Virus record (IMG/VR): IMGVR_UViG_3300026529_000001
Origin: a virus
DNA: 46,234 bases
Reading direction: 5' to 3' (one strand)
Shown here piece after piece: positions 23,267 to 43,861 of the stretch; positions within the stretch are counted from its first letter, which is position 1; every line of letters begins with the position of its first letter. The position numbers were made by a program, and so were the translations under genes. The notes beneath the pieces were generated by a model, which saw only the letters and a list, made by a program, of their open reading frames with translations, was not told the origin of the DNA and ran no database searches.

Positions 23267-24592
23267 CTAGGTGAGGACCCCAGCAATCACCAACCGCCCG
23301 GTCGGGTCCTGGGTGGCGGTCACGGTCCCGGTCCAGAGTTTCGTGCTGGGAGGGGGTGGCGGAGGGGGAGGAGCCGATCCTGTCGGCAGCTCGGCGAGGA
23401 AGACGTCCGATCTTGGGGAGCCGTCCATGTCGGAGGTGAACAGCACGTATCGCCCGTCCGGGGAGAACTTGGCAAACGAGAGAAACGTGTAATTGTTGGT
23501 CGTGTTATAGGCGTGACCTAAGAGACGTCTCCGGCCGTTCGGAGTGACCAAGACCATCCCGCCCGGACTCAACCAATAGGCTTCGGGGGGCCGGAGGGAC
23601 CCGTAGTGGTTCAGGAGCGCCCATTGATCGCCGAGGTTGGCCGGGTGCTGAATCCAGTTACCGCACCCGTGAACGAGGGTGGCGTTTCCCGGTCCTGGGA
23701 AATGAGTCACATTGGGCACGGTCGGGTCCCACACGGTCCAGTCAGGCGGGTAGCTCATGTTCCAATCCACCCCCACCCAGCGTCTCCGGAGACTCGCGAT
23801 GTGGGCGAAGGGGACGGTCCCGTCCGTTGACCAGGTGATCGTATTCTGGAGCCAATCCCACAGTACAATGCCGTTCTGCGGGGTGGTCATCGAGATGCCG
23901 ATGTAGCGCCCCGCCCGATCGATGCGCGGTTCGTTCAGGTTCGCGTTCGTGTACGTCTTCGCTGTTCCCGTGCTCGGCTCGTACCCCACAATCGTCGGTC
24001 CGGTCCCTCCACGCATCCAGACGAAGAAGCTGTCCGCTTCGGCCTGATGCAGCCACGTCGGCCAATTGGTCGCGTCCATATGGGGGAACCCTCCCCCCGG
24101 GACTTCGAGCCCAGTTGACCAATCGAACCGTCGGATCGCTCCATCCCCTGCTCCAATGTAGGCGTAATTCGGAGTCGCTGGATTGTTCGAGAAGGCGAAC
24201 CCGAGGTCCGCAACGGGCTGGAGGGGACCGGTGAGAACCCGGGGATTGCCAACCGCTCCTGTCGCCGGGTCGAAATCGATCAGCGTGTGCCACCCGTCCC
24301 CTTGATAGAGATGGATCGCTCGTTTGCCGTTGTAGGGGAGGGAGACTTCATCGCCTCCTTCGGCGTACGCGTGCCCCCAGCTCAGCCCTGGAGATCCGGC
24401 CCCCGGAGGGAACGCCTGGGAGGTCAGTTTGTGGATCTTCACTCCGGTCGTCGGATCGAGGTAGAACCCCCCATGAGGTAGGGATGGCACATTGAGCGCG
24501 GCATACGCGGCGGTCAGGGGGATCTGTGCTGTGGTAGCGACCGGCAAGAGCGTCGGGTCGGGCTGAGGGAGTGGGGCAGCGGCAAGGCTCAT
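23267..24592 (-). CDS. Beta-propeller protein (TolB/oligogalacturonate-lyase-like) with poly-Pro linker and small C-terminal domain
   Basis: ATG at 24592 overlaps the upstream TGA. ...FAKFSPDGRYVLFTSDMDGSPRSDVFLAEL... is a typical propeller-blade motif, followed by PPPPPPPP and a 30-aa tail. Confidence 0.5.
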   Translation of the reverse strand: MSLAAAPLPQPDPTLLPVATTAQIPLTAAYAALNVPSLPHGGFYLDPTTGVKIHKLTSQAFPPGAGSPGLSWGHAYAEGGDEVSLPYNGKRAIHLYQGDGWHTLIDFDPATGAVGNPRVLTGPLQPVADLGFAFSNNPATPNYAYIGAGDGAIRRFDWSTGLEVPGGGFPHMDATNWPTWLHQAEADSFFVWMRGGTGPTIVGYEPSTGTAKTYTNANLNEPRIDRAGRYIGISMTTPQNGIVLWDWLQNTITWSTDGTVPFAHIASLRRRWVGVDWNMSYPPDWTVWDPTVPNVTHFPGPGNATLVHGCGNWIQHPANLGDQWALLNHYGSLRPPEAYWLSPGGMVLVTPNGRRRLLGHAYNTTNNYTFLSFAKFSPDGRYVLFTSDMDGSPRSDVFLAELPTGSAPPPPPPPPSTKLWTGTVTATQDPTGRLVIAGVLT

Positions 24593-24762
24593 GAGCGGTC
24601 CCCCGTTTCGTGGGGTGTCGGATGGGACAAGGGAGGGTGAGTAGGGATCTCCTGTTGGATTGCAGGCCTCGGTGGGGTCGAGATGTGGATGATATCGATG
24701 TTTTTCCCAATGGCCGCGGCACCAAACAACAGGATGAACAACGCGATCGCGATGGCTTCCAT
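24589..24762 (-). CDS. Small N-terminally anchored Pro-rich membrane protein (spanin-like position)
   Basis: 57 aa. MEAIAIALFILLFGAAAIGK then a Pro-rich tail. TAATG coupling to the endolysin stop and ATGA coupling to the next gene. Below the ORF-track cutoff. Confidence 0.5.
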   Translation of the reverse strand: MEAIAIALFILLFGAAAIGKNIDIIHISTPPRPAIQQEIPTHPPLSHPTPHETGDRS

Positions 24763-25196
24763 TAGGCGTCCTTTTGGAGAAAGAGTTGGCGTTCCGCTTC
24801 ACGACGTCGGACGAGTCCAGGAAGCACTTCTCCCCCCGCATGGACCCACAACGGGAACTGGTTCGCGGCTTCGGCGAAGTTGCCGGCGTTCAACAAGCGA
24901 AGCATGGTTGACTGAGAGAACGCCCCGGTGCCCACGTTATACGCAAACGAAACTAACGCATCAAACTGGGATTGGGACAACGGCACATGCACCCACGCCT
25001 CGACAGCGCCGGAGAAATTCTTCACGTCCTGCTTGAGGAGATCCTCGGCCTCAGCCAACGTGACCGTCTGTCCCTCCATCACACCGGACGTGTGGCCGAA
25101 GCCTATCGTCCAAATCCCAACAGGATCCCGGTAGGCAGAAAGTTCACAGCCTTCGAATGACTGGATCAGTTTGTAGCAGGTGTCGCTCGGGGTCAT
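24762..25196 (-). CDS. Endolysin, GH24 (T4/P22-type) lysozyme
   Basis: LIQSFEGCELSAYRDPVGIWTIGFGHT...FDALVSFAYNVG matches the E-D-T catalytic region. ATG at 25196 overlaps the upstream TGA. Confidence 0.85.
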   Translation of the reverse strand: MTPSDTCYKLIQSFEGCELSAYRDPVGIWTIGFGHTSGVMEGQTVTLAEAEDLLKQDVKNFSGAVEAWVHVPLSQSQFDALVSFAYNVGTGAFSQSTMLRLLNAGNFAEAANQFPLWVHAGGEVLPGLVRRREAERQLFLQKDA

Positions 25197-25501: not shown

Positions 25502-25780
25502 TTATGCCTTTTTCGGCTGACTCGGTGCCACCGCCAAATCGTGGACGACCATGGACAAGAACCACGCGACGAGCGCGCCCAACGCGGCGTTCCCTTGAGC
25601 GCCGAGCGCGGGAATCGGTGGGAGATTGATCCATCCCACGAGCGACACCCCACTTGCGACGAGGAGGGCGAGGAGTTGCTTCACTTGAGGAGGGAGGGCC
25701 TTCCCCAACCACGCGGCCCCTCCCTGAGCCAGTTCGGTCAATGCGGTCGTGATGAGTCCTGCGAGTGCGACGGAATCCAT
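25502..25780 (-). CDS. Putative holin
   Basis: 92 aa with 2-3 hydrophobic spans and a charged C-terminus (SQPKKA). Strong SD (GGAGAGGTGA). Immediately upstream of the endolysin. Confidence 0.6.
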   Translation of the reverse strand: MDSVALAGLITTALTELAQGGAAWLGKALPPQVKQLLALLVASGVSLVGWINLPPIPALGAQGNAALGALVAWFLSMVVHDLAVAPSQPKKA

Positions 25781-25853: not shown

Positions 25854-25982
25854 CTAGTGTGATTTCCCTTCTGAACACATCACCACCCCGCTGCACGTAT
25901 TCCCGATCGCTGGAGGGGCGAACACATACCCCACCAGCAGCAGCGCCGTAGTGAATACCATGAATGTCCGCACCACCATCAT
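25854..25982 (-). CDS. 42-aa hydrophobic Cys-containing peptide
   Basis: MMVVRTFMVFTTALLLVGYVFAPPAIGNTCSGVVMCSEGKSH. AGGGAGGG SD lies between the peptidase stop (25990) and ATG 25982. Below the ORF-track cutoff. Confidence 0.45.
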   Translation of the reverse strand: MMVVRTFMVFTTALLLVGYVFAPPAIGNTCSGVVMCSEGKSH

Positions 25983-25989
25983 CCCTCCC

Positions 25990-26433
25990 TTAATCGATTG
26001 GAGTCTCTTGATCTAAGAAAATATGCAACCACCAATGCGTTCCATACAATGTGCTGTACCAATCGCGGGAAAAATCTTCAGCGGAATACCATAAATTCCC
26101 ACCCGTCCACGGATCCCAGATGATGAGCCCGCCATTCCATGTTTCCGCAACCCCATAATGCCCGTTTGATTCGCGTTGAAAATTCACGACCGCAGGAAGA
26201 TGTTTTCGGAGTTTGGCAAGGGAACTATTTTCTTGAAACACGAATTTGATGTTTAGTTCGCCGAGGACACGATACATATCTTCGTGACTCACACCCTTTA
26301 TTGCCCCTATAGTCTTATCTGGGTTCGGATCCAGCATCATGTCCAAACGTTCGCCAGAGATTCGAATATTAAGTCGCTCCAAAATATGTCGAAGTGCAAA
26401 CGCCCCGCAGTTCCAGTCTTCAGTTTGTCTCAC
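25990..26433 (-). CDS. Papain-like cysteine peptidase (C39-like)
   Basis: QTEDWNCGAFALRHIL (Gln/Cys), GHYGV (His) and IIWDPWTG (Asp) fit the C39 catalytic pattern. GTG start overlaps the GNAT TGA (GTGA). Low G+C. Confidence 0.65.
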   Translation of the reverse strand: MRQTEDWNCGAFALRHILERLNIRISGERLDMMLDPNPDKTIGAIKGVSHEDMYRVLGELNIKFVFQENSSLAKLRKHLPAVVNFQRESNGHYGVAETWNGGLIIWDPWTGGNLWYSAEDFSRDWYSTLYGTHWWLHIFLDQETPID

Positions 26434-26918
26434 AGGTTGATACGGTACATGAAATAGGTGTTTCCAGACCCGAACCAATTAGGATACTCACCGATAACTT
26501 CAGCACCGAATGATTGATTAAGTTGAATGCTTCCGTTTTCATTCGAATGCCCGATTACGGTCGCAAATCCAAGCCCGGAAACAACTCCAAGTATGTGTGC
26601 TTTCAGGATCTTGGCGTACCCCTGTCGTTGGTAGGGTTTCAAAATCCCTGTCGTATAAACATAGAATGTTTTGTCGGCGTCCCAACGGGAATCAATCCTA
26701 AGGTCAGCATCGGTCACTCCAGGCACAGGTTCATCAACATCTCGTACCTTATGTCCATAAGTCTCCCCCGCAAGGATCCCATCGACGAACATCCATCGCG
26801 CTATCGCGGTTTTGAGGACTTCGCGTTTATCCTCAAGATCAAGTGCAAGAACATCCGGGAAATACTCTTCAAATAACATCGTATCTTTGACCGCGACGTC
26901 GCGTTTAAAAATAATCAT
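26430..26918 (-). CDS. GNAT family N-acetyltransferase
   Basis: YVYTTGILKPYQRQGYAKILKAHIL is a motif A (Q/RxxGxA) pattern, with a downstream ...NENGSIQLNQSFGAEV. ATG at 26918 overlaps the ATP-grasp TGA. Low G+C. Confidence 0.65.
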   Translation of the reverse strand: MIIFKRDVAVKDTMLFEEYFPDVLALDLEDKREVLKTAIARWMFVDGILAGETYGHKVRDVDEPVPGVTDADLRIDSRWDADKTFYVYTTGILKPYQRQGYAKILKAHILGVVSGLGFATVIGHSNENGSIQLNQSFGAEVIGEYPNWFGSGNTYFMYRINL

Positions 26919-28471
26919 CTCGGCACCTCGTATCCCCACGCCTGTAACTTCGCCGTATCCCTCGTCGCTCGATCACTCCCGTCAGTTACCCGCGCAAACT
27001 TATCGGAGACCTCAATCTCATCATACAGGCTATTTACCATGTCCCGGGCCTCCTCAATCTTTCGCGCTTGTCCGGTGATCTCCATGACGTGCCCGGACAC
27101 CCCGGCCGTCCGGTAGTCGTCGTCCTCCTTCTGAGCGTCCAATAACCACACATGGGGGCTATCGACCGGGCCGCTAATCCTGACATGGGTCGCGTCCTCC
27201 ATCATCGTCTCGAACGCCTGTTGATCGGCCGGGGAATCGGTCATGCCGTCGGTAAAGGGGTTCGGAGGAATACTCACCCGTAGAGCGTACCCGTACCCGG
27301 GCTTGAGCGCCATGCTCGGGGCCTTTCCTTCGCAGAGATCAAGAATCGCTGACCGTGGGTCATCGGCAAACAACTCGCTGAGTGCGTAGATCGCGCTGTA
27401 CCCGATCCGCGGAGTGAATTCTAGGCCAGCTGGCTTGTGGGTTTCTTCGTCGATGATGCAGTTCAGGTCGATTGGCCCACTATACGGGGGATACGTCTGT
27501 CCCCCAGGTCCGGTCGGACCTTTGAGCCATTCCTTGAACTCGTCGCGCCCAAGGGTTTGCTGAAGGATCTTCGTGTGCAACCCCCCATACCCCCACACGG
27601 TCGATGTTTGGCACCCGGTGTTCGGGCCTTGGTCCCCGGCGAACGCTTTCTTCGTCTCGATCGTTCCCGAATAGGGGGGGACGATTTCCCCGTTCACCAC
27701 CCACACTTCGGTTGAGACCTCGATCCCCTTCACGTACTCTTGGAGGAGGAACTTCATGTCCTCTTTGAGATCCCCCATCTCGCCCGCGTGTTCGAGGGTA
27801 TGCACCATGTCATCGGGACCCTTGGCGACGTAACTCAGCGCCGCTGACCCGTTGAACGGTTTCAGCACCCACCTGCCCCCGACAGATTTCACGAACTCCT
27901 GGGCTTCGGGGATGTGCCCCTGGACGCGGAAGATCTTCTTCTTCGCCCCGAGCTCGACCGACTTCCACGGGGTCCCGCCGGACGGATCGAAAAACACCGT
28001 CTTCGGGATGGGAATGCCGCACCGCACCATCACCGACAGTCCGTACGCGCGGTTTTGTTCGAGGAGGTCGTTTACTTTCCCACCGGCCCACACGGGGATG
28101 TGCTTTGCGCGGAGGGCGTCCGCAAGTTCTCCGAGCTTGAGACGGTCGTCTCCGGTGTGGTCGAAGATCACCGCCTGGGGTTTGAGGTTCAACCCTTCCC
28201 GGATCGAATCCACCTGATCGACCATCCCCTTGTAGAGTCCCTGCTTCCGATACCAGGGGTCAGGGAGCCACACTGTAGCACCGATCCGCGCCGCGAGGGG
28301 GAGGAGTTCCCCGAACCGACTGATGAGCAGGATCTTGCCCGAGCGATGAGCGGTCGGTCGTGCGGCTCCTCCCCCACCACCTGGCGAGGGAGCGGGCGGT
28401 TGCTGGGTGACGGTAGAATCAGAACGAGGGACGGGCCCGGACGGATTACTGATGTTGCTGATGACGACCAT
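26915..28471 (-). CDS. ATP-grasp ligase, PurD (glycinamide ribonucleotide synthetase)-like
   Basis: 518 aa. RWVLKPFNGSAA...LLQEYVKGIEVSTEVWV...AGDQGPNTGCQ...PIDLNCII...LEFTPRIG follows the PurD-type ATP-grasp layout. It has a low-complexity 40-aa N-terminus. Confidence 0.65.
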   Translation of the reverse strand: MVVISNISNPSGPVPRSDSTVTQQPPAPSPGGGGGAARPTAHRSGKILLISRFGELLPLAARIGATVWLPDPWYRKQGLYKGMVDQVDSIREGLNLKPQAVIFDHTGDDRLKLGELADALRAKHIPVWAGGKVNDLLEQNRAYGLSVMVRCGIPIPKTVFFDPSGGTPWKSVELGAKKKIFRVQGHIPEAQEFVKSVGGRWVLKPFNGSAALSYVAKGPDDMVHTLEHAGEMGDLKEDMKFLLQEYVKGIEVSTEVWVVNGEIVPPYSGTIETKKAFAGDQGPNTGCQTSTVWGYGGLHTKILQQTLGRDEFKEWLKGPTGPGGQTYPPYSGPIDLNCIIDEETHKPAGLEFTPRIGYSAIYALSELFADDPRSAILDLCEGKAPSMALKPGYGYALRVSIPPNPFTDGMTDSPADQQAFETMMEDATHVRISGPVDSPHVWLLDAQKEDDDYRTAGVSGHVMEITGQARKIEEARDMVNSLYDEIEVSDKFARVTDGSDRATRDTAKLQAWGYEVPR

Positions 28472-30475
28472 TCAATTCACCCGGAATTTAAGCTTTCCAC
28501 GTAACGTAAGTTCGAGTCGTGGTCCGATGTGCAACACCAGGAAGTCGTCGTCCTTGGCTCCTCCGGGTTGCGGGACCCACTGTTGCGATTCATCACCGGC
28601 TCGGAGGATGCCCACATAGGCCGGCACCCCGAGCGGTTGGTTGGCTGGGAACGGGAGGGCGAAGTACGGGTAGAGGTCATCGATGAGCAGTACCGGCGGA
28701 ATCTCGTCGGTATCGGTGAACGCCTGCTGTGGTGGCTGATAGACGAACGGTCTGAGGTTGAGCTGATAAAGGATCGGGCCGAGCGATTGATCCTCATCGG
28801 AAATGGCCGGGATCGATAGGATTTGTTCATCAGCATCAGGGCGATACAGCGGACCTGGGAGATTGTCGTCGAGAACGAAGTAGACGAGGAAGTCTTCCTG
28901 AAGTTGAGCGAAGATGTCCTCGGTCCACCCACCGAACCACGGAGGCCGAACCGCAATGACGTTGGCATCGGCCTGGACGGGAGCGACCCAGTTCTGCCAG
29001 AAAGCATCTTCGTCGGGGACTGCAACCGGAGGAGCCGATTCATCGGATGCCCATGGTGAGACGACCAGTCGAACGAGAACGGTCGAGCCGAATGTCGGAC
29101 CGAGGTCTTCGTCAACACCGAGCGGAGTGACAGGAGCAATAACGAGATCATCGATCGCCGGGAGCCAGACAAGATTCCGGGCCGCAATGGCCGGGACCCA
29201 GTTCTGCCAGTAGTCCTCATCCACGCCCAGGGCTGGGGCAGGATAGTCACCAGATGCGGCTTCGCTGAGCGGGAGCTGGACAAGGTTCTGGGCTGGGACC
29301 GCAGCAACCCAGTTCTGCCAGGTCTCCGATTCATCGGCAACGGGTTGTGGGGCGGACTCATCCGAGGCCCATGGTGAGACGATGAGTCGGACAACCACCG
29401 TCGAGACGAAGGTCGGGCCGAGATCATCATCGATACCGAGCGTTGGTTGCTGAGTAAGATCGTCGGTTGCCCATCCCAGTTGCACGGACGGGGCAGAAGC
29501 GATCGGAACAGGGACCGACCATACGCTGTCCTCATCACCAACGACCGCAGCAGCACCCGGAGCGAATTCATCGCGTTCGAGGGTTGGTTGTGGGATCGCC
29601 GCTGATGTGAGGAGCGGACCGACCCACAGAGTGTCGTCATCGGCGATCGGTTGAAGGGCGGATTCATCAGACGCCCATGGTGAAAGAACAAGCCGTATCT
29701 GAACCAGCGACCCTGAAACCGCCCATACCACATCGTCATCGAAGGCTGGCTGCGGAGACGGTTCATCGGTCGGCCACGGGAGCCAAACCTGGTTCTGAGC
29801 TGGGACCGCTGGGACCCAATTCTGCCACGTCTCGGACTCATCGGCAACAGGCTGAGGAGCCGATTCATCTGAGGCCCATGGGCTGATAACCCATCGAGTC
29901 TGAACAGTCGATGTGAACGCGAACGATGGGATATCATCATCAACGGTCGCAACGGTCGCCTTGAGGACGTCCGCATCCGGCAGATAGATCGGGAGGAAGA
30001 CCTGCGAGCGCGGAGCGACCCAGTTGATCCAGACGCCGTCCTCATCGGTCGTCGTGTAGAGACGCGGGACATCCTCAGCGTCACGATCAGGAGCATACAG
30101 CGGCCCCAGGAGTTGAGGAACCGGTGCGACCCAACTGAACCACCATTCGTCCTCGGTCGGGAGATAGAGGCGCGGGACGTCATGGGTGGCATCGGGAAGG
30201 TAGAGCGGGCCGAACGTCTGCGGGACCGGTCGGACCCAGGATTGCCATCCCCGTTCACTGTCGTCATCGTTGAGGTGAAGTTTTGGAACATCATCCTGAC
30301 CAGCATCCGGCAGATAGAGGCGGCCGAACGTTTGCGGAACCGGCGGATCGTACGGGACCGGTGGAGCGAACGGACCCAGCGGGACAAGATAATCAATGAA
30401 GAGATCCTGAACCGTCTCAGGATCACGCCACGGATACGGGACCGCCAGTAGCCAGGTGAGCAGGACACGGGGCAC
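28472..30475 (-). CDS. Acidic Trp-rich tandem-repeat protein (virion/fibre-associated?)
   Basis: 667 aa with 7 or more copies of a (D/E)n-W-x-(N/S)-W-V-x-(P/A)-V-P-(Q/A) unit and four near-identical SPWASDESAPQP blocks. GTG start. Lies between fibre-like genes and the ATP-grasp gene. Confidence 0.6.
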   Translation of the reverse strand: MPRVLLTWLLAVPYPWRDPETVQDLFIDYLVPLGPFAPPVPYDPPVPQTFGRLYLPDAGQDDVPKLHLNDDDSERGWQSWVRPVPQTFGPLYLPDATHDVPRLYLPTEDEWWFSWVAPVPQLLGPLYAPDRDAEDVPRLYTTTDEDGVWINWVAPRSQVFLPIYLPDADVLKATVATVDDDIPSFAFTSTVQTRWVISPWASDESAPQPVADESETWQNWVPAVPAQNQVWLPWPTDEPSPQPAFDDDVVWAVSGSLVQIRLVLSPWASDESALQPIADDDTLWVGPLLTSAAIPQPTLERDEFAPGAAAVVGDEDSVWSVPVPIASAPSVQLGWATDDLTQQPTLGIDDDLGPTFVSTVVVRLIVSPWASDESAPQPVADESETWQNWVAAVPAQNLVQLPLSEAASGDYPAPALGVDEDYWQNWVPAIAARNLVWLPAIDDLVIAPVTPLGVDEDLGPTFGSTVLVRLVVSPWASDESAPPVAVPDEDAFWQNWVAPVQADANVIAVRPPWFGGWTEDIFAQLQEDFLVYFVLDDNLPGPLYRPDADEQILSIPAISDEDQSLGPILYQLNLRPFVYQPPQQAFTDTDEIPPVLLIDDLYPYFALPFPANQPLGVPAYVGILRAGDESQQWVPQPGGAKDDDFLVLHIGPRLELTLRGKLKFRVN

Positions 30476-30478
30476 ATT

Positions 30479-35823: not shown

Positions 35824-36011
35824 CCACGCTTCTTTCTCCTTCGCGAGTTCCAATGCTTGCTACACCACGTACAGTTGCAGCGTTCCACCGGCCAGCCGTG
35901 CTTATGCGGCCACACTTCACCCCGCGCAACCCGATACAGTACGGTCGTGAGTTTTTCAAGGGTCGCCGCCGTCGGAGGCGAAAAACCTAGTTTCCTGCCC
36001 ACAGCACTCAC
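35820..36011 (-). CDS. Hypothetical small basic protein
   Basis: 63 aa. GTG start overlaps the upstream TGA (GTGA). The 3' end overlaps the HNH stop by 4 nt. Confidence 0.4.
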   Translation of the reverse strand: MSAVGRKLGFSPPTAATLEKLTTVLYRVARGEVWPHKHGWPVERCNCTWCSKHWNSRRRKKRG

Positions 36012-36859
36012 CGTACCGCCACCCTGGGGAGGAGGTGGTCGAGGAAGTCCGTCTCTGCTCCGTGTTCCGTGCCGATCCGCTTCAACGCCAAGAGATCCCG
36101 GATAAGATGCTGCCCACCGATCAATCCAGGATTAGGCTTGATGTAGGCGTGTTGGCCGATCCGCTTATCCAATCGGAGCGCCGGCATGATCTCATCCCAC
36201 TCCGCGCCGATCCGCTCCCCAAGATCGGCTAAAGTGGTCGCGGCGGCAATCGAGCTCGCGAGACAGGTATTGATCGCCATCTTGCACAGTTCCGCGCTCT
36301 CGTATTTCATCACGAGGACCGGACACTTAAACTGCTTCACCGCATCCTCAACCAACCACGGGAGCGGAGCGTCGGGGACAACACTCCCGAGAATGATCCG
36401 CTCAGGATGTAAGAACCTCTCGACCGCTTGGCCGAGCACCATCGTCTCGACCCAATAGAAGACTGGTACTCCACCCTTCGAGAGCCGGAGTTCGTGAATC
36501 GACCGCGTAAACCCCGGGGACACCTGGCTCATGATGACGAGAAACACCGTCGAGGCGATGTACGGAAGAGCCTCTTCAATGAGTGATCGGATCGCCGATT
36601 CATCCCCTCGCCCATCGGCTCCCAATGGGACATCCTGGGACACGATCACCATCGAGCACTCGCGTAATCGAGAGAGGTCGGTCGTCCGGGGGTTCGCCAT
36701 CAAGAGTTCGAGCCGAGGTTCAGGCTTCGTGAGCGGGGTTCGTTCGCCCACCTCAAGGACCAACCCCACCCGGTACGCCCAACACGCGGCCGCCACCTGT
36801 CCCATGTGCGACATCCCGAGGAAACCGGTCGTCACCCGATCATCCCGAGGTAGCTCCAT
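36008..36859 (-). CDS. UDP-glucose/GDP-mannose dehydrogenase family protein, truncated and degenerate
   Basis: The layout matches UGDH: GFLGMSHMG (GxGxxG-like), VIMSQVSPGFT, FLHPERIILG, ESAELCKMAINTCLASSIAAATTLADLGERIGAEWDEI...LDKRIG. The GGxCxxKD site reads GGQHLIRD (Cys->His). No C-terminal UDP-binding domain. Confidence 0.55.
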   Translation of the reverse strand: MELPRDDRVTTGFLGMSHMGQVAAACWAYRVGLVLEVGERTPLTKPEPRLELLMANPRTTDLSRLRECSMVIVSQDVPLGADGRGDESAIRSLIEEALPYIASTVFLVIMSQVSPGFTRSIHELRLSKGGVPVFYWVETMVLGQAVERFLHPERIILGSVVPDAPLPWLVEDAVKQFKCPVLVMKYESAELCKMAINTCLASSIAAATTLADLGERIGAEWDEIMPALRLDKRIGQHAYIKPNPGLIGGQHLIRDLLALKRIGTEHGAETDFLDHLLPRVAVR

Positions 36860-37893
36860 GCGACGTTTGCCGCTCCAAGAGCGTCCCACATCCACATGAG
36901 CCAGACGGCATAGGAGGCTAACCCGACCGAAACAGCAGGGATGTGGATACCCAGAAGCGCCGTTCCCCAAACCCAGAGGTACGCCCCAAGTCCCACGAGG
37001 CCAGCATGATGAGCGATCTCCAGGACCACGTTATGGGCGGTATCGTGGATCTCGGCTCGCTGATCTGGTACCGGAGCAATGAGCGTGTTCGGTCCCCACC
37101 CGAAGATGGGTTTCCGGGCGATCTGGGAGGCGATGTATCCCCAGAGGAAGGCTCGGTCCTCGGCGACGTTCTTGACGGGCGTCCGGTCGAAGAGGCGCTG
37201 CGACCAAAAAGCCCCGCAGGCAATCCCCGCAAGAATCGGGAGGACCCCCCAGACCGAGTATGTCACCCCCGCCCAGACCAATGTCACGATCATCCCGAGC
37301 ATCCCCGCCCGCGACCCCGTCACGAACAGGGTCATGGAGAACAACACTACAGGAACGATCCAGTAGATCCCCGACATGGCGAACCAGACCGATACCGGCA
37401 ACAGGAGGCACAAATACCCGCCCAATAATCCCGGATTCCCGATCGTCCCCCACGCCCCGTCCGTTTTCTCCTTCGCCCCGCCGATCCGTCTGGCCCACGA
37501 TTGATTCTGGGCCTGGGCGAGGGCGACAAGGCAAACGGCCATCCCCACCCCTACGGACCATTCCAAGAGGAGATTCCGGGCCTCTACGGGCATCCTGGCA
37601 ACGACTAAGGCCGTCACTCCATAGGCGAGGGTGGTGATCACCCCATCCCCGCGTCTGGTTCGGGGAATAACCCCCATCCGAGCGTTCCTGGAGAACATGG
37701 CCCCGACGAGCATCGCCCCTACGAATGCTGCAATCGGAAGATCCAAGGGAGTAGGGGTCAGGTGGGCGAACAGCGCACCGATGACCATGATGACGAGGCC
37801 GAGGTGCGTAATCGCGCACTTGACCTCGGTGAAGGCCGCCATGGGTGTTACAAGAACGGTGAAGAACGCCCCGACCAGCATCGCGGTGTTCAT
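36832..37893 (-). CDS. O-antigen ligase/polymerase-like (Wzy_C family) polytopic membrane protein
   Basis: 353 aa with about 10 hydrophobic spans. ...GNPGLLGGYLCLLLP...TGSRAGMLG...RAFLWGYIASQIARKPIFGWGPNT...HNVVLEIAHHAGLVG matches the Wzy_C signature. ATGA coupling. Confidence 0.7.
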   Translation of the reverse strand: MNTAMLVGAFFTVLVTPMAAFTEVKCAITHLGLVIMVIGALFAHLTPTPLDLPIAAFVGAMLVGAMFSRNARMGVIPRTRRGDGVITTLAYGVTALVVARMPVEARNLLLEWSVGVGMAVCLVALAQAQNQSWARRIGGAKEKTDGAWGTIGNPGLLGGYLCLLLPVSVWFAMSGIYWIVPVVLFSMTLFVTGSRAGMLGMIVTLVWAGVTYSVWGVLPILAGIACGAFWSQRLFDRTPVKNVAEDRAFLWGYIASQIARKPIFGWGPNTLIAPVPDQRAEIHDTAHNVVLEIAHHAGLVGLGAYLWVWGTALLGIHIPAVSVGLASYAVWLMWMWDALGAANVAWSYLGMIG

Positions 37894-42100: not shown

Positions 42101-42425
42101 CAATGTGCCCGGCCAAGGAGAGCGGGGACGGGAGATTCATCACGGGCCGGATCACGTCCCCTGCCTGTTTGAACCCCGGAGCGTTCGCAATCGCCGATTG
42201 CACCTGCCCGACCCGCTGGCCGAGCCCAAGGGCACCTTGCGCCGCCCGCTGCCACCATGCGGGCTGGGGAGTGGTCGCCTGTGGCGTCGGCGCGGTCCCC
42301 CCGTACTTCTGGTGAAAGTCACCCCACGGATCGCCTTGGGGAGTCGTTCCCGCCTGCGGTGTCGTGGGTTGTGCGGGCGTCTCCCCACCGTACTTCTTCG
42401 TGAATTCCGCCCACGGATCGATCAT
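39105..42425 (-). CDS. Large internal virion / ejection-type protein (putative)
   Basis: 1106-aa ORF, ATGA-coupled. N-terminus has duplicated DPW(A/G)(E/D)F..KYGG motifs and Ala/Gln-rich helices. No enzymatic motif recognised. Role is a guess from size and position. Confidence 0.45.
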   Translation of the reverse strand: MIDPWAEFTKKYGGETPAQPTTPQAGTTPQGDPWGDFHQKYGGTAPTPQATTPQPAWWQRAAQGALGLGQRVGQVQSAIANAPGFKQAGDVIRPVMNLPSPLSLAGHIDPATGKRVADPETVGETIGKIPLMTGIAAPVIRSASMVRAAEDAAQKAAKRAVVKDAAQLTLVKAQESAVQAQAAQATKAVHPPIQLKLPLSPALMKTLESEKGAINTKPIADYLQKQHQVQTFTGDLGDQLYQIHRQADAAGVDARNLMRTIGQEMTPKDWEAIYHAREVRDPSALTETQRHWYNVTSGIIDSTEEIKQSLPKQFRPVTGVGYIRRFALGEGSLVERVRQGMVSGRTSILRTTTDAFKHRRYVALTDVATGTKQVVAQISGRLVSPSGESLGTMARLKSYEELMTRDLAPMERRLEKLTHQIDVFRGWSERSPARVNAVVNALARNLGKVADTLADEISTIVPKLGPELRREQSRLAKLVQAFQEARAIGGIPVVKKFDALQERLKAVQQQITQVKARYDPASLEDKVFIGKDGKRYLLGEPTTAEIEAQTPQRYYKNALFSSVVDHLETMQIARSNAFLEHLKQDPDFLKLAMPPDLAWQAPKGWTSTEVPQFMGWRMDPRVARAFNAAIPQSRTSSDILAALRWLSRSAVNIGFVNPLIHTPNVAFNWVVDRGTARMLNPASWNRLRISSVKAFNAAFHVNEDYIDVMRHGGGLMRENGTAAEVRSSLLDMARRELKENPGTIDGMATHLGRTARDVVDAPWWLSHHATWATNDFFYLQRVFEREMEGMSRIDAIRQTDRFIPNYRLPGTILGSGDLSRVFRDRGFVIFAPYHYGVLKAWGQMATGLLGRVPFAERAAAADKLAMAGILLLGVVPAMDHVFQQMTGNPRTRARRAGVLAPAYNLGRTLEGTLPLDYAVESMVSPSPLVGSALELSHRREEWTTPGHSPTENLVQALKVASGGIAPYSIRQMIQQGTGIGQTILSPVMTQPKLTPAESSVRQFMFTKARLQAEITGLQEQGKGEQAQRTAHAYNDRLRKLVTQALKDEGVPVNGSVVEQFVRQHGVKLGTPFGIQQKERRKEEPFSIQQVMRKHPPGRVYAPGPPP

Positions 42426-43861
42426 GGCACCTTGGTCAATTCAGGGATGGCGATGCCGTTCGCGTTTGCCTGTTTCCGAAGCCACGCCTGTTCTTCCGTG
42501 GCAAGCAACTTCCACGCCGCTGGCGAGATCGACCCACTTGCCATCATCGCAGTAAACGCATCCGCTGCACGCTGGGTCGGAGCGTGGGTCGCCGGACCAC
42601 CCGCCGGCACAGGCACCCCTGGTTGCGTCGGGACCTTGGGCTTCGGTTGGGCCTGTCCAGGAACATGATACTTGTCATAAAGCGATTGCAACCGTTTCGT
42701 CAACCCAGATACATTTGGATCCTTGGGGTTGGCTTGATAGGTATTATCGAGCAACTCCTCAAGGCGATGAATCGCTTCACGCGGCCCGGGAGGAAGACGC
42801 TCCACAAACGTTTCAGTCTCACGAGCTGTCGTCGCTCTCCCGCGTGCTCCCGCCCCCATCAAATCCTGACTCTGCGGGATCGACGCTTCAAGATCGCCCA
42901 CATCCACAGTCGGGTTCTTCTTCTTGAACGCCTCCAGCGTATCCCGAGCAGCTTTGAGGGCGTTATGGACTTGGGCCTGCGATCCCCCACCCGTCGCGAT
43001 GGATCGTGCGTTCGCCACGGCCCGCTCGACCACCGTGCTCAATCGCGTCACCGCCGCGCGCTCGCCGGTCGTCTGCTGCGTCGCCTGTTGCTGGCCGATC
43101 CGCGCCTTCTCGTAGGCCGTCATCGGTTGCGCGCCCTGCGACCGAATGAACGCTTCCACCTTGGCGGGGTCCGGTTGTCCGGTCTTCATGTCCCAGAGGA
43201 ACATGGGGATCTGTTGACTTCCAAGATCGCCGGTCGCTCCGAACGTGCCGAAGGTCATTCCCGTCCCTGGTGCCCCTCCACCGAACGCCTGCTGGAACCC
43301 GGTCTGCGAAAGTACCAGTTGGATCGCTGGGTTCACCTGGGCGATCTGTTGGAGTTGATTCACGGGAATGTTGCCCGCATCGGGCCCCAGAATCTTCTGG
43401 AGCGCAGGGAGCGCCTGCGGCATGACCTGGGCGATCGTCCGCTGAGAGTAATCGGTCTGCGGCGGCACGATCTCCGTCGCCCCTGTCGGTTGCGGAGGAA
43501 TAGCGGGTGTTCCTGGAGTCTCGGGTTGATATCCAGCGGGGGTCTGCATCTCTCCTGTCGGCGCGTTGATGTCCTGCGATGCAGGAGGTGTTCCGGGAAC
43601 TTCAGGCGTCCCTGGAACGGCGGGAATCCCAGGAGTCATGACCGGACGCGTAGGAAATTGCAACCCAGGAACCGCCTTCTGCACCCCTTCTAACATCCCT
43701 TGAGGCGGAGGTTGATTCGGATACATTTGCCGAAAGATCTCATAAGCCTGGAGCATCTGCTGTCGCTTCTGCTGCTGCATCTGAAGAATGGCCGGGAGCC
43801 ATGCCGACGCTTGACTACTGAGCGTCCCGAACGGGTTGTACCCGCCCCAGTTGGATGCCAT
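42422..43861 (-). CDS. Gln/Pro-rich virion protein (putative internal protein)
   Basis: 479-aa ORF. MASNWGGYNPFGTLSSQ... with long Q/P/G/T low-complexity tracts. Confidence 0.5.
   Translation of the reverse strand: MASNWGGYNPFGTLSSQASAWLPAILQMQQQKRQQMLQAYEIFRQMYPNQPPPQGMLEGVQKAVPGLQFPTRPVMTPGIPAVPGTPEVPGTPPASQDINAPTGEMQTPAGYQPETPGTPAIPPQPTGATEIVPPQTDYSQRTIAQVMPQALPALQKILGPDAGNIPVNQLQQIAQVNPAIQLVLSQTGFQQAFGGGAPGTGMTFGTFGATGDLGSQQIPMFLWDMKTGQPDPAKVEAFIRSQGAQPMTAYEKARIGQQQATQQTTGERAAVTRLSTVVERAVANARSIATGGGSQAQVHNALKAARDTLEAFKKKNPTVDVGDLEASIPQSQDLMGAGARGRATTARETETFVERLPPGPREAIHRLEELLDNTYQANPKDPNVSGLTKRLQSLYDKYHVPGQAQPKPKVPTQPGVPVPAGGPATHAPTQRAADAFTAMMASGSISPAAWKLLATEEQAWLRKQANANGIAIPELTKVP

Follow-up and report, generated by a model that had tools for sequence, protein, structure and literature searches.

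Three adjacent minus-strand genes of a phage genome, encoding an ATP-grasp ligase, a GNAT acetyltransferase, and a C39 peptidase, may well constitute a genuine late cytoplasmic module of three enzymes that tailors one protein or peptide substrate; judging from the sequence comparisons described below, we consider the chances of this reading to be about even. The genes are located in IMG/VR virus record IMGVR_UViG_3300026529_000001 (46,234 nucleotides; this whole stretch of DNA is referred to as the window), which looks like a ~46-kb phage genome with a G+C content of 58.6%, in which genes for a large terminase, a portal of the SU10 type, and a structural protein of the virion were also identified, and for which a near-identical DNA search found no near relatives among GenBank phages. 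An earlier note on this DNA had described a four-gene module, consisting of these three genes and a 42-codon open reading frame (ORF), with no match to a described phage function. The ligase, GNAT, and C39 genes retained their place in the module, but the 42-codon ORF did not, nor was the block evolutionarily uniform, since only the GNAT and C39 genes are a recent import. On the other hand, the lack of a described counterpart was confirmed: no PHROG family covers the ligase, GNAT, C39, or the 42-aa ORF, no match for any of the proteins was obtained with PADLOC (anti-phage defence models), and nothing specific was found in the literature on the trio in phages or on PurD-like phage enzymes. The module is undescribed in the libraries and literature searched, while the enzyme classes and the logic of combining an ATP-grasp, a GNAT, and a papain-fold enzyme are already known.

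Coupling, recurrence, and history of the genes

The four minus-strand ORFs of the earlier note were found at the coordinates that it gave (Table 1). Direct reading reproduced the ATGA overlap, the GTGA overlap, and the 7-nt spacer (GGGAGGG), the junction between the C39 gene and the 42-codon ORF being TAA, GGGAGGG, ATG. A GAGG sequence is located 7-12 nt upstream of the GNAT ATG. This start was preferred over a GTG at 26939, which is also open, because a 94%-identical relative (P0069) begins with MIIFKRD; similarly, the GTG start of C39 was preferred over an open TTG at 26478 because all homologues begin with MRQ and an identical database protein (P0065) has 147 aa. The block lies, as claimed, between a repeat-bearing 667-aa gene and a holin-like gene, and since the stop codon of the former abuts the start codon of the ATP-grasp gene as TGAATG, the tight packing extends to five genes or more. 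Inside the block, no signal resembling a promoter or a terminator rose above chance. The three enzymes are probably expressed late from one tightly packed transcript.

This arrangement was considered to be more than chance because it recurs in other genomes. Between GNAT and C39, the link is clear: in loci L003 and L004/L005, their genes lie side by side, overlapping or nearly abutting (an overlapping junction was called in L004 also), and an exhaustive profile search recovered ~10 fusion proteins with a length of 300-350 aa, each combining a GNAT and a C39 of these two families (P0072, P0082, P0113, P0157, P0174, P0179, and P0190 among them). Furthermore, at least four other lineages carry the pair or the fusion directly beside a ligase gene of this family, in three arrangements. 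In L010, L011, L108, and a contig of the European Nucleotide Archive (ENA), the ligase gene is followed by the fusion gene, and the two overlap; the ENA contig with P0222 is probably a further case. In L105/L109, a contig of an uncultured-archaeon metagenome-assembled genome (MAG), the fusion gene faces two ligase paralogues and an HNH gene in convergent orientation, and the neighbours read from the sequence are of cellular type, e.g. a nucleoside-diphosphate-kinase-like gene. The separate genes occur as ligase with a LAGLIDADG intein, GNAT, and C39 in L106 (62-kb viral contig), and as GNAT, C39, and a divergent ligase in L107 (45-kb viral contig). In addition, the ligase gene of L036 is followed by an HNH gene, a lysozyme gene, and a solo GNAT gene of the same family. 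The survey of co-occurrence proposed in the earlier note therefore found the trio in phage-like contigs and in one archaeal-MAG contig; the identity between the proteins of the trio loci and those of the window was 24-32%.

The pair was also observed in several other surroundings. In L003:4401-11468 (58-kb contig), it is located between a portal-like gene and a major capsid gene, the slot where many phages carry the prohead protease; no ATP-grasp gene was found within the 18.7 kb examined, and a 526-aa protein of L003 was rejected as an ATP-grasp. In L004:348-1743 (also L005), a gene for a SET-domain protein (protein methyltransferase type) overlaps the start of the GNAT gene, which in turn overlaps the C39 gene, forming a row of three putative protein-modifying enzymes. 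GNAT-C39 fusions and solo C39s were also present in DPANN MAGs (L012, L110, and L111, Micrarchaeota; L113, Woesearchaeota) and in a Saccharibacteria MAG (L112), and in L111 the gene after the fusion is a further C39, this one solo; none of these five loci showed an ATP-grasp gene nearby. A 169-aa ORF on the 3' side of the L001 ATP-grasp gene was found to be neither GNAT nor C39.

The composition profile and the G+C content at third codon positions (GC3) of each gene agreed with the description in the earlier note of a low-G+C patch beside an ATP-grasp gene of genome-typical G+C. The G+C content and GC3 were 0.46 and 0.46 for the GNAT gene and 0.457 and 0.459 for the C39 gene, respectively, against GC3 values of 0.74, 0.72, and 0.72 for the neighbouring ATP-grasp gene, 42-aa ORF, and holin gene; in 90-nt sliding windows, the drop was sharp, beginning at ~26930 and ending at ~25985. 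In a rough neighbour-joining tree, the ligases of L010, L105, and L107 were basal, and the window ligase was nested with those of L001, L002, and L007, which are without the pair. In these three loci, small membrane proteins are encoded directly after the ligase, followed by an endolysin in L001 and, further downstream, an integrase in L002. The GC3 of 0.46 together with this nesting indicates that the GNAT and C39 genes were recently inserted exactly between a ligase gene and a lysis cassette that are both resident. The pair was thus re-acquired next to the ligase and became translationally coupled to it, and re-acquisition at this very place is the strongest single argument in favour of a functional link.

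Several observations weigh against one functional module. Approximately 90 ligase loci are without GNAT and C39, and no ligase accompanies the pair or fusion within the available sequence of L003, L004/L005 (a short contig), L012/L110, and L111; since each occurs alone elsewhere, the link between them is facultative. The trio lineages are not all independent, the upstream proteins of L011 and L107 being 36% identical; L106 and L107 have divergent ligases, the one from L107 being without the GPNTG loop. The insertion site is a module boundary, at which unrelated accessory genes often land. Taken alone, the window GNAT reached only 14.7 bits with Acetyltransf_1 (cut-off of 20.7), and its AlphaFold2 (AF2) model, from three sequences, had a predicted local distance difference test (pLDDT) score of 39. 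The chemistry proposed below is deduced from family membership alone, and a small-molecule or glycan substrate, improbable as it may be, is also conceivable. The main rival explanation is a chance insertion at the module boundary, in which the GNAT-C39 pair would be an independent accessory cassette, e.g. an effector pair cleaving and acetylating host proteins, that landed at the boundary between structural and lysis genes, and in which the ligase would have an unrelated core role in these phages. The separate occurrence of pair and ligase, the recent import of the pair in the window, and the lysis genes directly after the ligase in its closest relatives are as this explanation would have them. 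It accounts poorly for a pair or fusion that is the immediate neighbour of the ligase in the other lineages described above, in three arrangements and in contigs of both phage-like and archaeal-MAG type, for a same-family GNAT two genes from the ligase in L036, and for the start/stop overlaps that join ligase and pair in the window and in L010/L011. We therefore regard a coincidental adjacency as unlikely.

Families of the three enzymes

The first gene is predicted to encode a divergent ATP-grasp carboxylate-amine ligase of the PurD family that has lost the PurD-specific substrate motifs. The protein carries a 45-aa low-complexity N-terminal extension. The window sequence alone scored below the Pfam cut-offs, with 18.7 bits for GARS_A (cut-off of 27) and 15.4 bits for GARS_C (cut-off of 34.8). 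A profile constructed from 18 family members aligned over the full length with PurD structures (E-value of 1e-34), in agreement with the PurD-like ATP-grasp assignment in the earlier note, whose GPNTG motif was also found. Both the core ligands and the layout of N, ATP-grasp, and C domains that define the ATP-grasp superfamily are present. Lys204, Gln244, Gly249, Glu272, Lys274, Asp335, Asn337, Glu351, and Arg355 are invariant across the 18 diverse members, and the aligned core positions overall were kept in 84-89 of 89 members: the Lys in 88, the Glu and Lys of E-x-K in 89 and 86, respectively, the glycines of the loop in 88-89, and E..R.G in 87-88.

PurD activates the carboxylate of glycine, and GGREHA and R-x-G-D-P-E are the motifs that we take to be its signatures (GDPE was confirmed in alignments with PDB structures). 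The R-E-H and D-P-E elements were found in none of the 89 members, in a comparison that included an E. coli PurD reference sequence. In place of GGREHA and GDPE, the ligase family has S-x-x-G-D/E-G and R-x-G-Y-x-A, and the GDPE of the PurD structures from B. subtilis and A. aeolicus aligns opposite GYSA of the ligase family. Two residues of the family itself are nearly invariant, a Tyr (in 82/89 members) and, following GPNTG, a Cys (in 79/89).

The ligase sample comprised 64 homologues from a protein search and ~100 phage loci, and the gene was always located in the late or structural region of the loci fetched. In ~28 of the IMG/VR loci (L037-L092, e.g. L038:2684-12264), it lies between the genes for the large terminase and the portal, and genes for a zinc-ribbon protein, a protein of 250 aa, and the major capsid protein come next; elsewhere, it comes after genes for proteins of 500-1900 aa. 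By BLAST, the ligase is the sole gene linking the window to nearly all ligase loci. These positions bear on the possibility, raised in the earlier note, that the protein is an ordinary purine-biosynthesis PurD, present as an auxiliary metabolic gene. Several homologues are labelled phosphoribosylamine-glycine ligase by the Joint Genome Institute (JGI), and the full protein does align with PurD. However, the score with the PurD equivalog TIGR00877 was 46.5 bits for the window ligase and 56-81 bits for its relatives, far below the cut-off of 288 bits, both PurD motifs are replaced in 89/89 members, in which the family Tyr and Cys occur instead, the gene always stands in a structural or late region, and its surroundings showed no other gene of purine biosynthesis. 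The ordinary-PurD reading is largely refuted, and we find it scarcely credible.

LAGLIDADG/intein domains were observed in some homologues of the ligase (P0015, 872 aa; P0051, 778 aa; L106:4646-6985), and an HNH endonuclease gene adjoins the ATP-grasp gene in two other loci (L036:7158-7607 and L105:6728-7297); mobile endonucleases seem to target the conserved ATP-grasp gene. Among GenBank phages, a protein search with the ligase yielded one weak match, L009 (MW202796.1, 33422-43832), at the unannotated end of the record (42422-43441). The late region of L009 contains genes annotated as 'ubiquitin' and 'N-acetyltransferase gcN5', and this GNAT did not match the profile of the window-GNAT family. 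No matches came from scanning IMG/VR with the ATP-grasp protein alone or with close GNAT or C39 alignments, nor from either of the two metagenome scans or the first genome scan.

The GNAT assignment was supported by the YQRQGYA motif and by the family profile, which matched Naa50, Naa30, RimI, and the CurA GNAT. The window protein is homologous to the N-terminal halves of the fusion proteins (E-values of 1e-14 to 1e-33), and several of the GNAT domains in these fusions exceed the Acetyltransf_1 cut-off (23-37 bits). Tyr86, Gly100, His124, and Tyr158 are invariant in the family, and the acetyl-CoA loop (QRQGYA) is present with an invariant Gly. When aligned with Naa50, Tyr86 falls in vYimtlG and His124 in lHv; Tyr73 (strand 4) and His112 (strand 5) of Naa50 are presumably the catalytic pair. 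The alignment suggests that the Tyr and His of the GNAT occupy the active-site positions of this N-terminal acetyltransferase.

The third gene is predicted to encode a stand-alone C39 peptidase of the double-glycine type with an intact active site. The C39-like claim of the earlier note was upheld by Pfam Peptidase_C39 (PF03412; E-value of 2.9e-9 and 37.3 bits, above the cut-off of 22 bits) and by the catalytic residues, which are present on alignment: Gln18, Cys24, His107, and Asp122 are invariant in close homologues, with the Gln six residues before the Cys. In the fusions, Gln, Cys, and His are invariant, and the Asp position is occupied by Asp or Asn. An AF2 model of moderate confidence (pLDDT of 68) matched the peptidase domains of PCAT1, ComA, and LahT with E-values of 2.6e-5 and weaker. 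A search of the viral fold library yielded one match with an E-value of 0.001 or lower, the papain-like domain of a giant 'Morphogenesis protein 1 ... hydrolase', which was uninformative. In bacteriocin processing, the C39 peptidase is the N-terminal domain of an ATP-binding cassette transporter and removes a double-glycine leader during export; no transporter gene was found near the C39 gene in L003, L004, or the trio loci inspected.

The 42-codon ORF and neighbouring genes

The 42-aa ORF has a hydrophobic N-terminal segment (Kyte-Doolittle value of 2.04) and is preceded by GGGAGGG as a Shine-Dalgarno sequence. In L001, the locus with the closest relative of the ligase, a 41-aa membrane ORF is located directly after the ligase gene and before holin-like genes and an endolysin gene, the same architecture as in the window. 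No counterpart of the 42-aa ORF was found after the C39 gene in L003, L004, L010, L106, or L107; L006 is the same phage with one base different and provides no evolutionary test of the ORF. The ORF was placed outside the module because of its resident G+C content (GC3 of 0.72), the absence of a counterpart in other module loci, and the positional match in the lysis cassette of L001. It probably encodes a small membrane protein with which the resident lysis cassette begins, and not a substrate or precursor.

This bears on the analogy that the earlier note drew with microviridin/graspetide clusters, which encode peptides that are made by ribosomes and modified after translation (RiPPs). In microviridin biosynthesis, the peptide is cut after the leader, the new N-terminus is acetylated, and ATP-dependent amide or ester bonds are formed (PMC7823629, PMC13039773). 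The analogy stood for the three enzyme classes (ATP-grasp MdnB/C, GNAT MdnD, and the C39-containing transporter MdnE), which the window shares, but not for their types: the ligase is of the graspetide type there and of the PurD type here, and C39 is part of an ATP-binding cassette (ABC) transporter there and a free 147-aa protein, or fused to GNAT, in the window family. Those clusters contain a precursor gene, whereas the context here is a phage late operon, and no conserved small precursor ORF was found across the module loci. A graspetide- or microviridin-like cluster with the 42-codon ORF as the precursor would draw on the same set of enzyme classes (PMC7823629) and on a small ORF with a good Shine-Dalgarno sequence and two Cys. 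However, the G+C content of this ORF is resident, unlike that of the imported pair, neither a homologous nor an analogous ORF follows the module elsewhere, and its product resembles a membrane anchor and is without a double-glycine leader, as the earlier note had already suspected. Moreover, the ligase is not of the graspetide type, and the C39 carries no ABC transporter part, with no transporter nearby. The RiPP-precursor reading is largely refuted, and we consider it very improbable.

Table 1. Positions of the module genes, their junctions, and adjoining features in the window.
Feature	Position	Strand	Remarks
ATP-grasp ligase, 518 aa	26915-28471	minus	PurD-family (predicted); resident, genome-typical G+C
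GNAT, 162 aa from ATG at 26918	26430-26918	minus	Naa50/RimI-like; first gene of the imported low-G+C cassette
C39 peptidase, 147 aa from GTG at 26433	25990-26433	minus	Second gene of the imported cassette
42-codon ORF	25854-25982	minus	Judged to be outside the module
ATGA stop/start overlap, ATP-grasp/GNAT	26915-26918	minus	Direct reading
GTGA stop/start overlap, GNAT/C39	26430-26433	minus	Direct reading
Low-G+C patch marking the GNAT+C39 cassette	25985-26930		Composition profile, 90-nt sliding windows, GC3
667-aa upstream protein, repeated motifs	28472-30475	minus	Context and candidate substrate

On the 5' side of the module, the 667-aa protein had no match in Pfam, PHROG, or PADLOC. It contains repeats of the type VSPWASDESAPQP and WQNWVP..P, and a second frame is open over nearly the same span (28477-30477, 666 aa); in the DNA of the gene, Tandem Repeats Finder detected a single short 18-nt array (30335-30382). 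A large protein is also encoded directly 5' of the module or of the ATP-grasp gene in L007, L011, L106, L107, and the ENA contig.

The genes on the 3' side of the block code for a holin-like protein of 92 aa, for a protein of 96 aa that has a membrane segment at its C-terminal end, and for an endolysin (Phage_lysozyme). The holin-like protein (25502-25780, minus) starts with MDSVALAGLITTALTELAQGG/AAW, which bears a loose likeness to a double-glycine leader; this start may be a cleavage site for C39, or the likeness may well be due to chance in a G+C-rich genome. A 524-aa protein (23267-24841, minus) is encoded directly after the endolysin, with an overlap of ~80 nt, and has a weak match to PD40 beta-propeller repeats and a C-terminal run of nine prolines. 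In its late region, the window further contains two minus-strand genes (36832-37893 and 36008-36970), for a membrane protein of the O-antigen ligase family (Wzy_C) and for a protein resembling UDP-glucose/GDP-mannose dehydrogenases, and in L001, Wzy_C and Methyltransf_21 genes are located just upstream of the ATP-grasp gene. The Wzy_C and dehydrogenase genes may be concerned with glycan modification of the host or virion.

Proposed function and relation to known systems

None of the ligase, GNAT, and C39 has an N-terminal hydrophobic segment. Since signal peptides are lacking and the enzymes depend on ATP or acetyl-CoA, all three would act in the cytoplasm; for the same reasons, the remodelling of wall peptides in the periplasm, one of the roles considered in the earlier note, is unlikely. 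In the proposed pathway, C39 would cut the substrate at a Gly-Gly-type site, GNAT would acetylate an amine, most simply the new N-terminus, and the ligase would use ATP to join a carboxylate to an amine through an amide bond. The substrate would most likely be a late phage protein (a virion or ejection protein encoded beside the module) or a host protein, and the SET-domain gene that overlaps the pair in L004 fits a protein substrate. Because ~100 phage loci carry the ligase alone, the ligase is read as the core function, to which GNAT-C39 may be an accessory, editing that modification or completing it.

In a narrower version of this scheme, the trio would be a minimal tagging system of the ubiquitin or Pup type: C39 would expose a C-terminal Gly-Gly on a tag or a virion protein, the ligase, with an ancestor that activates the glycine carboxylate as an acyl phosphate, would join this glycine to a lysine or the N-terminus of a late protein, thereby cross-linking or tagging virion or ejection proteins, and GNAT would cap competing amines. 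We regard this version as decidedly improbable.

A chemistry directed to glycans or small molecules was also considered, in which the ligase would amidate, for example, a uronic acid with an amino acid, GNAT would N-acetylate, and C39 would be an acyltransferase or amidase of the same fold, such as BtrH. PurD itself works on small molecules, and in capsule synthesis by Campylobacter, an ATP-grasp amidoligase amidates glucuronate. The Wzy_C and dehydrogenase-like proteins in the late region of the window, the Wzy_C and Methyltransf_21 genes beside the L001 ligase, and the presence of BtrH_N and CtaG-type C39-fold acyltransferases among the weaker matches are all consistent with such a chemistry. 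On the other hand, the glycan genes of the window are 8-10 kb away and, by BLAST, are common only to L001 among the loci fetched. The best matches of C39 are true double-glycine peptidases, GNAT is nearest to protein N-terminal acetyltransferases, and it is a SET-domain gene that accompanies the pair in L004. A glycan or small-molecule substrate thus appears improbable, and the tailoring of a protein or peptide is preferred.

Combinations of these enzyme classes have been described previously. Operons of ATP-grasp and GNAT genes have been read as ligation followed by capping, and their phage versions as protein modifiers (PMC4431377). According to PMC10318531, which cites Iyer et al. 2009, C39-like DUF3335 domains are often fused to GNATs. 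The RimK-type ATP-grasp/GNAT/C39-like (DUF3335) systems predicted by Iyer et al. 2009, compared here through PMC10318531, and the R2K ATP-grasp and GNAT operons link an ATP-grasp to a GNAT and a papain-fold domain, as in the window, and are predicted to tag or cap proteins with peptides, phage-encoded versions included. Three differences were noted: the window ligase belongs to another clade than the RimK and R2K enzymes and is PurD-like with a Tyr and Cys signature of its own; DUF3335 is a far poorer match to the window peptidase than Peptidase_C39 and C39_2; and genes of the window type sit in virion-module or late operons.

PurD (EC 6.3.4.13) shares with the window ligase the N, ATP-grasp, and C domains, the GDxGPNTG loop, and the Mg/ATP ligands, but the window ligase falls under the equivalog cut-off, has other residues in place of GGREHA and RxGDPE, and is found in a virion or late context instead of a purine context. 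The butirosin pathway, whose ATP-grasp enzyme is BtrJ, can be likened to the window as another case in which an ATP-grasp ligase and a C39-fold enzyme act together on an acceptor amine. BtrH is the C39-fold acyltransferase in the synthesis of the butirosin side chain (PMC10318531). However, only weak, sub-threshold matches to BtrH_N were obtained, and in some of the fusions alone; there is no carrier-protein gene here, and a GNAT gene is present instead.

If the proposed function holds, many uncultivated soil and freshwater phages would carry a dedicated ATP-dependent amide ligase in their virion or late module (more than 100 loci, several with inteins), and some of them would add a fused or coupled acetyltransferase-peptidase. 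A tagging system of the type outlined above, if true, would bring enzyme-made isopeptide chemistry into virion assembly. For the annotation of metagenomes, the label phosphoribosylamine-glycine ligase given to this family can inflate the counts of purine auxiliary metabolic genes. For the mining of RiPPs, the triad of ATP-grasp, GNAT, and C39 alone does not make a cluster of this kind. Apart from the classical prohead protease, little is known about enzymes that modify late proteins of phages after translation, and this set of three enzymes would offer a testable entry point.

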